Assembly: GCF_003790525.1 (NCBI RefSeq)
Contig: NZ_CP033635.1
Source of the DNA: Escherichia coli
GTDB taxonomy: Bacteria > Pseudomonadota > Gammaproteobacteria > Enterobacterales > Enterobacteriaceae
Strand: one strand, 5' to 3'
DNA: 64,000 nt
In this document: one piece after another, positions 3,160 to 48,847 of the stretch
Position numbering within the stretch: the stretch's first letter is position 1
Layout of the letters: every line of letters starts with the position of its first letter
The notes under the pieces: model-generated
Database searches by the model: none
The model's input: only the letters and a program-made list of their open reading frames with translations
What the model was told of the DNA's origin: nothing
Position numbers and translations under genes: made by a program

Positions 3160-3174
3160 GTGTATTATCGGCGC

Positions 3175-3205
3175 AGAGCCCGGGCGAACCGGGCTTTGTT
3201 TTATT
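3175..3205 (+). terminator. rho-independent terminator after phoH
   Basis: GC stem agcccgggcgaaccgggct followed by T-run ttgttttatttc. Confidence 0.6.
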
Positions 3206-3721
3206 TCATTAACAGCAAAGACTTTCACTTCAGGTTAACGTTCTGGGGGGCGACTTTGAGCGTGTTGATAAGCTGAAATTAATTCTGGTTTAGATGCTTT
3301 TACCAGGCATTTTTCGTCATAGCACGCGACCAATGTAATGCCTCCAGCGCGGAGAGTTTTTTGCCTATCTTTTTCCAGCCATTCAACCTGTACAGGAGGT
3401 CTGGTGCCAATTTTGCGTATGAGGTTTAATCAACAATGAGCCAAAATTTGACTGACTGATTAACACCAAATATATTCTCCTGATTTTATTTTTTAGGGAT
3501 AATATTAAAAATATAAGGTTAATCTTAATTAAATTTTTGGCTAATATTGTGTCTTGTTATTTTTTGTGGACGGCAAGCCGCAATGGCAAAATAGGTATGG
3601 TTGTAATAATCAAAACATGATACTAACTATATATAGATCGTTGAATTGTTGGCATGTAACTCGCTACAGCGAGTAGCGTTAGTAATGAAATATAATCAAC
3701 ATGGATAGGTGAAGATTAATT

Positions 3722-4408
3722 ATGAGCTTTATGGTTTTTGTAACTTGTTTGACAATTGCATTTGTCGCCGGTTTTGCTGTTGCCAGAAAATTGACACTCC
3801 GAAAAGTTGCCTCATCGGTAATCATCACTAAATCGCAACCAGTTCCTTCCTCTGCAACTTCCCCTGCTGTTAAGGCGTCGACAAGGAGCTATACACCGCA
3901 GAAAACCTATCGTGACTCTCGTTGGCAAGAACGAGATGAGTTGTTCCAGGGAATGGTTGCCGAAGGTATTTTATTGGAAGGAAAAGAGTGGTTAATTACG
4001 CGTTGTGAAAAAATCTATTTTGATAATCTGGAGAAATGGTTTGGACATTATTGTCATATCCATTGCCAGGTCTCTCTGGGGCGCTTGATCAACTTTCCAG
4101 AACAACCCGAGTTTAGCGAAGAAGAAAGAAAGCGTTTCTTTGCAATTTATAATGGAATGGCAATGGATTATGTTCTGGTTTCAAAGAAGAACAATAAAAT
4201 AGTCTGTGTTATTGAGCTGGATGATCCGAGTCATGAAAGGGCAGATCGCATTATTCGTGACCGTTGGTTGAATACGATTATGACTATTGCACGGGTGCCT
4301 TTTGTACGAGCTTCTGTCACTAAATTGGATGAAATCCCTCCGGTCTGGGATACCCGTGACAAAATGCGCCCATTAGCCGCGGCGACAAAGGGTGAACCGT
4401 TGCATTAA
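3722..4408 (+). CDS. hypothetical membrane-anchored protein; N-terminal TM helix, Ser/Pro/Thr-rich linker, Cys/His cluster, DUF2726-like (PD-(D/E)xK-fold-like) C-terminal module; not present at this position in K-12
   Basis: 228-aa ORF preceded by very AT-rich leader; hydrophobic N-terminus MSFMVFVTCLTIAFVAGFAVA; motif MDYVLVSKKNNKIVCVIELDDPSHERADRIIRDRWL resembles the DUF2726 core; about 40% GC on hand count of first 120 nt. Confidence 0.6.
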   Translation: MSFMVFVTCLTIAFVAGFAVARKLTLRKVASSVIITKSQPVPSSATSPAVKASTRSYTPQKTYRDSRWQERDELFQGMVAEGILLEGKEWLITRCEKIYFDNLEKWFGHYCHIHCQVSLGRLINFPEQPEFSEEERKRFFAIYNGMAMDYVLVSKKNNKIVCVIELDDPSHERADRIIRDRWLNTIMTIARVPFVRASVTKLDEIPPVWDTRDKMRPLAAATKGEPLH

Positions 4409-4499
4409 CTAAGTACCCCGATCGGGGCTTCTCATCCCCCCGGTGTGTGCAATATACGAAAAAAAAGCCCGTACTTTCGTACGAGCTCTTCTTTAAAGA

Positions 4500-4587
4500 T
4501 GGCGGTGAGGGGGGGATTCGAACCCCCGATACGTTGCCGTATACACACTTTCCAGGCGTGCTCCTTCAGCCACTCGGACACCTCACC
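4500..4587 (-). tRNA. serX: tRNA-Ser (anticodon GGA), serX-like
   Basis: reverse complement reads GGTGAGGTGTCCGAGTGGCTGAAGGAGCACGCCTGGAAAGTG...GGTTCGAATCCCCCCCTCACCGCCA with long variable arm and CCA end; A-run on + strand 4462-4469 gives terminator on - strand. Confidence 0.9.
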
Positions 4588-4781
4588 AAATTGTTGTTCC
4601 TGTCTTGCTGGAACGGGCGCTAATTTAGGGAAATCATGACCTGAGGTCAACAAACTTTTTTAAAAAATCGCGCGTTTATTCAAACTTCAATCAATATGCA
4701 GTTTTAATAAGCGAAATTTGCTTTTTTTGCCACCGACCACGGATTTGTTATGCTGGTGGCTTTTGTAGATCATAACGATAA

Positions 4782-8645: not shown

Positions 8646-9062
8646 TTAAAAATCGGTTGAGTTATTTTGTAAACCCGAAACCTGGATGGTCGAGGTTTGT
8701 CCGGTTTTACGATCTGTCACGTTCAACTGCAATTGACCATCGCGGTTAGCAATATCAACAATATAATCGTTGGTCACCATGCGGCCCGGTTTACCGGTAT
8801 TAATATTCGACAGTAGCCCACCTAAAATTTGTGACTGGATGGCCTGAGTAAAGTTATCTAACGCTGAGGGTGTTTCAATACCAAAGTCATCGTTATAGCT
8901 CGGATCTTTATACGAGTTTTGGGCCTGGGCGCTATTTAATAAAAAAGCGCCATTATTTGGGTTACCACCAAAGTTTGGGTTACGGAACTGAAAAGTCATT
9001 GTTCCAGCCCAACTTAATGGCGAAATAAGCATGAGTAGAACTACTGCATGTTTGACACGCAT
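8646..9062 (-). CDS. csgF: curli assembly protein CsgF
   Basis: 138-aa ORF with signal peptide, between csgE and csgG. Confidence 0.93.
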
Positions 9063-9086
9063 TGCAGCCTCCGAACAATTTTTTAT

Positions 9087-9476
9087 TTAGAATTCATCAT
9101 GCGCCAAATCGCCCGTACTTAATAACGCCTGATTTATCTGGCGACGATTTAGTGCTTCTTCAGTTTGAATCAGTGCAAAGACGACAGTTTTTTCGAAGTC
9201 TCTTTTCAACGGGAATAAAAAAGTCTGGAAAATAACGTCCTGATTGACCGTTATAGTGATCCAGCTTCCCCATCGTGCACTGGGCCTTTCATTAATCGTT
9301 AAGTTACCCGTATAGTCACTTTCCCATTTATCACTAAAGGCTCGGTAAAAATCATGGCCAATAGATGAAACAGTATGGTCAGTTAACAATCCCGGGACTT
9401 CTACCTCAACGGCGTGAAGATTCCCTGCGGCGAACAGAAATTCTGCCGCCACAATCCAGCGTAAATAACGTTTCAT
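9087..9476 (-). CDS. csgE: curli secretion specificity factor CsgE
   Basis: 129-aa ORF with signal peptide. Confidence 0.93.
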
Positions 9477-9480
9477 GGCT

Positions 9481-10131
<651 letters not shown>

Positions 10132-10885
10132 GATGAAACCCCGCTTTTTTTATTGATCGCACACCTGACAGCTGCCTCTAAAATAGAAGCACCAGAAGTA
10201 CTGACAGATGTTGCACTGCTGTGTGTAGTAATAAATCAGCCCTAAATGGGTAAAATATAAAACTAATGGATTACATCTGATTTCAATCTAGCCATTACAA
10301 ATCTTAAATCAAGTGTTAAACATGTAACTAAATGTAACTCGTTATATTGAAATGTTAATCTTAAGGTTTTATTAAGTTTAGAAATGATAGAAAAGTTGTA
10401 CATTTAGTTTTTATTGCACAATTTTAAAAAATCATACAAATGGTGCTAACTTGCTAATAATGCATATAAAAAATATTTCGGTGTAGTCCTTTCGTCATGT
10501 AAAACGTTCTTGTTTTTTCTCTACACCTCCTTGGACAATTTTTTACTGCAAAAAGACGAGGTTTGTCACGGCTTGTGCGCAAGACATATCGCAGCAATCA
10601 GCGACGGGCAAGAAGAATGGCTGTCTGGTGATTTTTGATTGCGAAAAACGGAGATTTAAAAGAAAACAAAATATTTTTTTGCGTAGATAACAGCGTATTT
10701 ACGTGGGTTTTAATACTTTGGTATGAACAAAAAAAGAAAAATACAACGCGCGGGTGAGTTATTAAAAATATTTCCGCAGACATACTTTCCATCGTAACGC
10801 AGCGTTAACAAAATACAGGTTGCGTTAACAACCAAGTTGAAATGATTTAATTTCTTAAATGTACGACCAGGTCCAGGGTGACAAC
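10132..10885. promoter_or_regulatory. csgD-csgB divergent intergenic regulatory region (csgDEFG and csgBAC promoters, long csgD 5' UTR)
   Basis: about 750 bp non-coding, strongly AT-rich with A/T tracts, between divergently transcribed csgD and csgB. Confidence 0.8.
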
Positions 10886-11341
10886 ATGAAAAACAAATTG
10901 TTATTTATGATGTTAACAATACTGGGTGCGCCTGGGATTGCAGCCGCAGCAGGTTATGATTTAGCTAATTCAGAATATAACTTCGCGGTAAATGAATTGA
11001 GTAAGTCTTCATTTAATCAGGCAGCCATAATTGGTCAAGCTGGGACTAATAATAGTGCTCAGTTACGGCAGGGAGGCTCAAAACTTTTGGCGGTTGTTGC
11101 GCAAGAAGGTAGTAGCAACCGGGCAAAGATTGACCAGACAGGAGATTATAACCTTGCATATATTGATCAGGCGGGCAATGCCAACGATGCCAGTATTTCG
11201 CAAGGTGCTTATGGTAATACTGCGATGATTATCCAGAAAGGTTCTGGTAATAAAGCAAATATTACACAGTATGGTACTCAAAAAACGGCAATTGTAGTGC
11301 AGAGACAGTCGCAAATGGCTATTCGCGTGACACAACGTTAA
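10886..11341 (+). CDS. csgB: minor curlin subunit / nucleator CsgB
   Basis: 151-aa product from MKNKLLFMMLTILGAPGIAAA; Q/N/G-rich repeats. Confidence 0.93.
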   Translation: MKNKLLFMMLTILGAPGIAAAAGYDLANSEYNFAVNELSKSSFNQAAIIGQAGTNNSAQLRQGGSKLLAVVAQEGSSNRAKIDQTGDYNLAYIDQAGNANDASISQGAYGNTAMIIQKGSGNKANITQYGTQKTAIVVQRQSQMAIRVTQR

Positions 11342-11381
11342 TTTCCATTCGACTTTTAAATCAATCCGATGGGGGTTTTAC

Positions 11382-11837
11382 ATGAAACTTTTAAAAGTAG
11401 CAGCAATTGCAGCAATCGTATTCTCTGGTAGCGCTCTGGCAGGTGTTGTTCCTCAGTACGGCGGCGGCGGTAACCACGGTGGTGGCGGTAATAATAGCGG
11501 CCCAAATTCAGAGCTGAACATTTACCAGTACGGTGGCGGTAACTCTGCACTTGCTCTGCAAGCTGACGCCCGTAACTCTGATCTGACCATTACCCAGCAC
11601 GGCGGCGGTAACGGCGCAGATGTTGGCCAAGGTTCTGATGACAGCTCAATCGATCTGACTCAGCGTGGTTTCGGCAACAGCGCTACTCTTGATCAGTGGA
11701 ATGGTAAAGATTCTACTATGACTGTTAAACAGTTCGGTGGCGGTAACGGTGCTGCTGTTGACCAGACTGCATCTAACTCCAGCGTTAACGTCACTCAGGT
11801 TGGCTTTGGTAACAACGCGACCGCTCATCAGTACTAA
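11382..11837 (+). CDS. csgA: major curlin subunit CsgA
   Basis: 151-aa ORF; signal peptide; repeated S-x5-Q-x-G-x-G-N-x-A-x3-Q amyloid repeats. Confidence 0.95.
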   Translation: MKLLKVAAIAAIVFSGSALAGVVPQYGGGGNHGGGGNNSGPNSELNIYQYGGGNSALALQADARNSDLTITQHGGGNGADVGQGSDDSSIDLTQRGFGNSATLDQWNGKDSTMTVKQFGGGNGAAVDQTASNSSVNVTQVGFGNNATAHQY

Positions 11838-11856
11838 TACACATCTGTATTAAAGA

Positions 11857-11883
11857 AACAGGGCGCAAGCCCTGTTTTTTTTC
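11857..11883 (+). terminator. rho-independent terminator after csgA
   Basis: hairpin acagggcgcaagccctgt followed by T8. Confidence 0.7.
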
Positions 11884-11894
11884 GGGAGAAGAAT

Positions 11895-12659
<765 letters not shown>

Positions 12660-47980: not shown

Positions 47981-48764
<784 letters not shown>

Positions 48765-48847
48765 AAATATATCCTTCGGCTTTGCGTGGATGATAATTAT
48801 ACAGCACATGTAACGCTAATGTCATTACAGCAAAGATGCTACCCCTG

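Follow-up and report, generated by a model that had tools for sequence, protein, structure and literature searches.

The 754 bp at positions 10132-10885 are almost certainly the orthologue of the csgDEFG/csgBAC control region of Escherichia coli K-12, a divergent promoter hub, present here in a phylogroup F-type allele. They constitute an already known region in a common lineage allele, with nothing new in kind. The stretch of E. coli DNA analysed, hereafter the window, covers 64,000 nucleotides (assembly GCF_003790525.1, contig NZ_CP033635.1). By established knowledge, the csgD-csgB region switches curli and biofilm production and is among the most densely regulated promoters of E. coli. In this SMS-3-5-like phylogroup F strain, the leader and the core activator sites are unchanged and lineage alleles occur in the CpxR/MqsA zone. 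The value of the analysis is modest and lies in a precise map, in window coordinates, of known curli control elements.

In the literature, the same 754-bp region is described as 65.5% AT, curved and bound by at least 12 proteins and five sRNAs (PMC5745457, PMC12713406, PMC12388358, PMC4894380). An earlier note on this DNA had named it the csgD-csgBAC control region, integrating regulators and sRNAs that act on the csgD 5' UTR. This assignment holds, the diagnostic elements sought (OmpR/RstA box, MlrA palindrome, csgD leader, sRNA pairing cluster and CsgD box) appearing at their published K-12 positions.

Boundaries and composition of the divergent curli region

The region and the two genes that delimit it are listed below.

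10132..10885, no strand assigned: csgD-csgB intergenic control region, 754 bp, 34.2% GC
9481..10131, minus strand: csgD coding sequence, 216 aa, intact
10886..11341, plus strand: csgB coding sequence, 151 aa, intact

Both coding sequences are supported by the list of open reading frames (ORFs), by comparison with K-12 and by the SMS-3-5 annotation. Exactly 754 bp of non-coding DNA separate the csgD ATG (10131, minus strand) from the csgB ATG (10886, plus strand), and the published length of the K-12 gap is also 754 bp (PMC5745457; bioRxiv 10.64898/2026.04.22.719398). Relative to K-12, CsgD carries S19P and S110A, and CsgB carries S98N; a mechanical 160-aa ORF starting at 10859 includes the annotated start of the 151-aa CsgB at 10886. 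All seven genes of csgDEFG and csgBAC are full-length ORFs, with nucleotide identities to K-12 of 93-99.8%, and curli gene order and synteny are those of K-12 and of the SMS-3-5 annotation. The two operons are intact and, as the earlier note had stated, diverge from the gap. A side observation concerns csgA (11382-11837), which shares just 93.0% nucleotide identity with K-12 (32 differences, three amino-acid changes) beside csg genes that reach 97.2-99.8%; such a drop points to a csgA allele that is recombinant or divergent.

Intergenic gaps of the window were defined via the annotation of the near-identical genome SMS-3-5. Among 64 such gaps, the one between csgD and csgB ranks first in length, followed by gaps of 620, 572 and 562 bp; the initial estimate of about 750 bp, among the longest non-coding stretches, was accurate. 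Its GC content is 34.2% versus 50.6% window-wide; of the 25 gaps measuring 100 bp or more (mean 43.4%, sd 6.1%), just one is poorer in GC. Runs of at least five A or T number 13, i.e. 17.2/kb versus 4.05/kb in the whole window, and dinucleotide shuffles of the gap contain 8.5 +/- 2.2 runs, 3.6% of them reaching 13. The AT-richness and the many A/T tracts noticed at the outset are real, and both strings quoted as examples are present, near 10414 and 10709; but since 13 runs are only modestly above the shuffles, they are explained largely by composition. A simple Fourier test revealed no global 10-11 bp AA/TT periodicity across the gap.

Control elements from the csgD promoter to csgB

The identity, position and conservation of the elements described here, as well as the predicted hairpins and the sRNA complementarity, were observed directly in the window and its relatives. 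The csgD transcription start was set at 10279, a choice that gives the published 148-nt leader and reproduces all published coordinates. Promoter and protein-binding features are numbered from this start.

10285..10312, minus strand: putative csgD core promoter P1, TTGATT, 16-bp spacer, TAGATT, read relative to the published start
10319..10338, minus strand: OmpR activating site D1, overlapping the RstA box, centred at -49.5 (-40..-59), exact 20-mer
10347..10381, no strand assigned: zone of the K-12 CpxR boxes and MqsA palindrome, from K-12 site coordinates, with SNPs at 10349 (-70) and 10359 (-80)
10360..10376, no strand assigned: BasR-like direct repeat, from a motif scan
10392..10425, no strand assigned: MlrA palindrome AAAGTTGTACA-N12-TGCACAATTTT, -113..-146

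The TTGATT and TAGATT hexamers are probably the core promoter elements, in a block (10285-10312) that is invariant or nearly so across seven genera. The OmpR/RstA box matches both GTTACATTTAGTTACATGTT and TACATNTNGTTACA exactly, and the MlrA palindrome agrees with its consensus at all but 2 of 22 specified bases; both sites are conserved across genera and have zero matches in shuffles. In the urine isolate E. coli FDAARGOS_448 (locus L020), a natural 10-bp deletion, equivalent to window positions 10322-10331, drops one repeat unit of the OmpR box; this deletion in the csgD promoter is expected to abolish OmpR activation.

The scan for OmpR, CpxR and IHF sites proposed in the earlier note succeeded for OmpR, with an exact box at the published position, but not for CpxR and IHF: loose consensus scans of the gap for IHF, CpxR, CRP, Cra, RcsAB and RcdA found these motifs no more often than in shuffles. 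For K-12, published sources, in part quoting at second hand, give footprints at -37..-96 for IHF, -68..-80 and -90..-102 for CpxR, +28..-201 for H-NS, -31..+54 for RcsB and -192..-20 for RcdA (PMC4894380, PMC12388358, PMC3535384). These coordinates carry over to the window because there are no indels relative to K-12, and its IHF, CpxR, H-NS, RcsB and RcdA sites are putative sites placed solely by such transfer.

According to PMC4894380, which quotes Ogasawara 2010, the MqsA palindrome of K-12 begins at -78 and lies between the two CpxR boxes. At its position (10357-10368) the window reads AATCTTAAGGTT and K-12 reads AACCTTAAGGTT. The site definition, also from PMC4894380, specifies perfect inverted ACCT/AGGT half-sites at -78 (AACCT-N2/3-AGGTT); in the window, the SNP at 10359 mutates one half-site.

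The csgD leader, 148 nt long in the literature (PMC4152358), contains the following features, positions of the hairpins being given relative to the AUG.

10132..10279, minus strand: csgD 5' untranslated leader, 148 nt, no substitution versus K-12
10116..10141, minus strand: predicted hairpin SL2, -10..+16, enclosing the Shine-Dalgarno sequence and the AUG, from the minimum free energy (MFE) fold
10158..10215, minus strand: predicted hairpin SL1, about -84..-27, from the MFE fold
10191..10242, minus strand: predicted sRNA pairing cluster, with the best local duplexes of OmrA, OmrB, McaS, RprA and GcvB

The two hairpins as predicted match the published SL1 (-83..-28) and SL2 (-10..+16 relative to the AUG; PMC4152358). 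In an RNAalifold consensus, the SL2 stem is invariant across six genera, and SL1 is present too, with some compensatory changes. Scanned permissively against Rfam, 9000-12500 gave one match, RF02752 (ES056 sRNA), spanning 10187-10278 of the minus strand (119.7 bits versus a gathering score of 43, E = 8.5e-23). The full model, positions 1-92, is matched, but here the matched RNA corresponds to the 5'-most two-thirds of the csgD leader, from 1 nt after the published start. The match is the csgD leader itself, and nothing in the sequence points to a separate gene.

Pairing between K-12 sRNA sequences and the leader of the window was assessed by windowed RNAduplex, with shuffled sRNAs as the null; the latter used a slightly coarser step, which entails a small bias favouring the observed energies listed below. 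Duplexes of whole sRNAs with the whole leader had been tried and were dropped as long and unrealistic. Positions are relative to the AUG.

OmrA (first 21 nt), -80..-60: -25.9 kcal/mol versus shuffles -21.0 +/- 3.1, marginal
OmrB (first 25 nt), -84..-60: -30.2 kcal/mol versus shuffles -20.0 +/- 3.2
McaS, -97..-72: -34.1 kcal/mol versus shuffles -21.4 +/- 2.8
RprA, -111..-84: -29.6 kcal/mol versus shuffles -18.7 +/- 2.2
GcvB, -93..-67: -23.6 kcal/mol versus shuffles -21.7 +/- 2.4, not distinguishable
RydC, -35..-8: -16.9 kcal/mol versus shuffles -19.5 +/- 2.5, not distinguishable

The McaS and RprA duplexes use the ACACACAGCAG tract of the leader and are far stronger than the shuffled controls; together with those of OmrA/B, they fall at or near the published positions. 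As the leader is 100% identical to that of K-12, all K-12-mapped sRNA sites are retained. The search for these sites, also advised at the outset, gave strong complementarity for OmrB, McaS and RprA and a marginal case for OmrA, but for GcvB and RydC complementarity to the leader was no better than that of shuffled sRNAs in this simple windowed duplex scan.

On the csgB side, three features stand out.

10751..10761, plus strand: CsgD box CGGGTGAGTTA, exact match to CGGGKGAGNKA, upstream of csgB
10781..10786, plus strand: candidate csgB -10 element CATACT, within an invariant GACATAC block
10867..10885, plus strand: csgB translation-initiation region CCAGGTCCAGGGTGACAAC, conserved across genera

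Shuffles average 0.05 matches to the CsgD box, the GGTGAG core of which is invariant across seven genera. Conservation of the surrounding block (about 10713-10812) extends from Escherichia to Enterobacter and, in part, to Cronobacter. Cross-genus conservation makes CATACT at 10781-10786 the candidate csgB -10 element.

Experiments in K-12 and Salmonella, transferred to the strain of the window, suggest how proteins would bind these elements and what the regulatory output would be. Transcription of csgD would start at 10279, from a weak promoter that published work shows to depend on sigma-S, and would be activated by OmpR, from the box centred at -49.5, and by MlrA, from -113..-146. IHF, H-NS, CpxR, RstA, RcsB, RcdA and others would modulate csgD through footprints that overlap between about +54 and -200. 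The 148-nt leader is predicted to fold into SL1 and SL2, and the Hfq-dependent OmrA/B, McaS, RprA, GcvB and RydC may pair with it, lowering csgD translation or stability. CsgD protein would bind its box just upstream of the csgB promoter and turn on the curli subunit genes. The central ~250 bp is best described as a weakly constrained AT-rich spacer.

The phylogroup F haplotype

Over its 64 kb, the window differs from E. coli SMS-3-5 (phylogroup F) by five mismatches and one gap (about 99.99% identity). By megablast, the csgD-csgB region is found at >=97.5% identity in 5,329 of 5,426 complete E. coli genomes (98%), in agreement with the conservation that had been expected. Its exact 754-bp haplotype recurs in 60 or more complete E. 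coli genomes, among them SMS-3-5, IAI39 and CE10, which we take to be phylogroup F reference strains. The haplotype is a lineage allele and is not strain-specific. The alignment to K-12 called for in the earlier note gives 98.4% identity with 12 substitutions and no indels. The strain-specific change that the note saw in the rest of the window does not extend to this region: these substitutions are ordinary lineage polymorphisms in a haplotype common to at least 60 genomes. At 10631 and 10729, it is K-12 that is the outlier among 10 sampled haplotypes.

Related genomes provide some side observations. E. coli AR_0013 has an intergenic region identical to that of the window (L002:11350-12000), a csgD annotated as a pseudogene (internal stop) and a frameshifted dgcT; its pgaA, pgaB and dgcT lie beside the tRNA-Ser gene that in the window closes an interval starting at phoH (~3160-4590). 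This interval contains just a DUF2726 gene in the window, as in SMS-3-5, and in K-12 it contains pgaABCD-dgcT; the PGA polysaccharide locus appears to be absent from the window. At ~47981-48765, between rne and flgL, the SMS-3-5 annotation gives a DUF1778 and GNAT-acetyltransferase gene pair that resembles a toxin-antitoxin system.

Three of the 12 substitutions fall inside characterised K-12 sites, as located by PMC4894380 and PMC13304067: -70 (10349) in the proximal CpxR box, -80 (10359) in the MqsA palindrome and -127 (10406) in the 12-nt MlrA spacer. It is tempting to ask whether the phylogroup F haplotype is functionally rewired, these changes altering csgD repression or activation and curli timing, in which case curli could be, for example, less dependent on temperature or stress. 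At -70, the window has G where Salmonella, Citrobacter, Enterobacter and Trabulsiella (the four closest genera) and 8 of the 10 sampled E. coli haplotypes have A; its allele is rare (30-mer exact in 291 of 5000 genomes) and lies close to where the inhibitory OmpR D2 site of Salmonella would map (PMC13304067). Only OmpR site D1 has been observed in E. coli, which weighs against rewiring (PMC10002515). At -127 the window allele is rare as well, being exact in 88 of 5341 genomes, which bounds the full window haplotype to 60-88 genomes; but the substitution falls in a non-contacted spacer and the base is that of Salmonella. The -80 allele, AATCTTAAGGTT, is not special, since it is exact in 2475 of 5319 genomes (about 47%), so that at least about half of sequenced E. 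coli genomes lack a perfect K-12 MqsA operator.

Published precedents point in both directions. Single-base changes in the curli control region are known to alter curli or rdar expression (PMC11278976, PMC6611641), and a 2026 preprint associates the semi-constitutive rdar of clinical E. coli with intergenic haplotypes (10.64898/2026.04.22.719398). Conversely, a recent systematic study found csgBA expression unaltered in K-12 when cpxR or mqsR was deleted (PMC12713406), and the importance of the repressor sites hit by the window polymorphisms is itself debated. Functional rewiring of the phylogroup F allele is unsupported, and we consider it unlikely; the haplotype is best read as an ordinary lineage allele of the known control region.

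The variable centre and comparison with known systems

Loci with CsgD homologues in eight genera were gathered by a CsgD protein search followed by exact-protein contig look-ups. The csgD-csgB lengths are as follows.

Salmonella (L021:2247-3000): 754 bp
Citrobacter: 761 bp
Trabulsiella: 759 bp
Enterobacter: 742 bp
Rahnella: 718 bp
Cronobacter: 705 bp
Kosakonia sp. BYX6: 426 bp, the exception

The blocks kept across genera are the leader core, the promoter with its OmpR box, the MlrA site, and the CsgD box with the csgB promoter; they are seen in Salmonella, Citrobacter, Enterobacter, Trabulsiella and partly Cronobacter, but the centre is not. Retention of length (705-761 bp in most genera) despite a diverged centre may hint at a spacing or architectural constraint. 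Kluyvera (L009, CP162271.1) has an orphan csgD homologue (65% identity) beside ycdZ, without csgEFG or csgBAC. For Salmonella, locus L021 was used in place of L003, which has a deletion across the csgD start codon. The replaced locus, from Salmonella enterica GCA_006533655.1 (L003:2975-3010), lacks ~24 bp over the csgD Shine-Dalgarno region and ATG, and for this reason its CsgD is called from MKKKVHS and not MFNEVHS, in a protein cluster of 99 members.

Within E. coli, variation was measured on ten haplotypes sampled evenly down the identity ranking, one 10-bp deletion being set aside. The central features and the density of variable sites along the region are given below.

10445..10700, no strand assigned: variable centre, unalignable between genera and the most polymorphic part within E. 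coli
10549..10581, no strand assigned: conserved island CAAAAAGACGAGGTTTGTCACGGCTTGTGCGCA, 33 bp, inside the variable centre
Leader: 0.7 per 100 bp
Promoter-proximal 160 bp: about 4 per 100 bp
Centre: 8.5 per 100 bp
csgB-proximal part: 2.2 per 100 bp

The centre contains 7 of the 12 differences from K-12. Inside it, the island is identical at 27 of 33 positions between E. coli and Salmonella, at a similar offset from csgD (417 versus 418 bp); none of 300 shuffles reached 27, the best giving 19/33. It gave no match to the known motifs tried. Two more novel readings are rather improbable: that the phylogroup F haplotype, through its broken MqsA palindrome, its -70 substitution and its rare MlrA-spacer allele taken together, measurably shifts curli control away from that of K-12, and that the island is an unmapped regulator-binding site.

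The length and AT-richness of the gap might also hide an unannotated small-protein gene or an independent sRNA. Mechanical ORFs of 40-64 codons do exist at 10263-10403(-), 10454-10597(-), 10510-10638(+), 10598-10792(-) and 10635-10757(+), but no internal ORF lies in sequence alignable between genera, and the centre is the part that varies most within E. coli. Promoter-like and terminator-like scans yielded no more sites than shuffles, the Rfam scan recovered the csgD leader alone, and the 33-bp island is too short for a gene. A hidden gene is very unlikely. Weaker still is the view that low GC content (34.2% versus 50.6%) and H-NS coverage, reported over +28..-201 in PMC12388358, betray horizontally acquired, H-NS-silenced foreign DNA, which is next to inconceivable and effectively refuted by species-wide presence (the same locus is occupied in 98% of complete E. 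coli genomes) and cross-genus synteny and conservation (Salmonella, Citrobacter, Enterobacter, Trabulsiella, Cronobacter and Rahnella all have a region of similar length, with conserved flanking blocks, between their csgD and csgB orthologues), the borders being devoid of repeats, tRNA or mobile-element genes.

The reading retained, that of the curli control region in a phylogroup F-type allele, is best appreciated against the two reference systems. The K-12 region (reviews: PMC5745457, PMC4152358) shares its flanking genes, orientation and 754-bp length with that of the window, and is 98.4% identical to it without gaps; the 148-nt leader is identical, and there is no difference in the OmpR/RstA box, the MlrA half-sites, the CsgD box or the core promoter. 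The window differs by its substitutions at -70, -80, -127, -167, -174, -243, -252, -341, -352, -361, -365 and -450, and by an imperfect MqsA palindrome.

The Salmonella enterica region (agfD-agfB; PMC13304067) has the same architecture and, in L021, the same 754 bp. Its leader core, promoter with OmpR D1, MlrA site, CsgD box and csgB initiation region are conserved at 80-97%. By contrast, the leader diverges over its initial ~50 nt (10235-10279), though identity falls roughly to chance level in no more than the first ~30 nt, and the central ~270 bp are near chance-level identity, the island at 10549-10581 excepted. The MqsA palindrome is absent from Salmonella, where regulation of the curli region also differs for H-NS, RcsB and cAMP-CRP (PMC12388358, PMC7409106).
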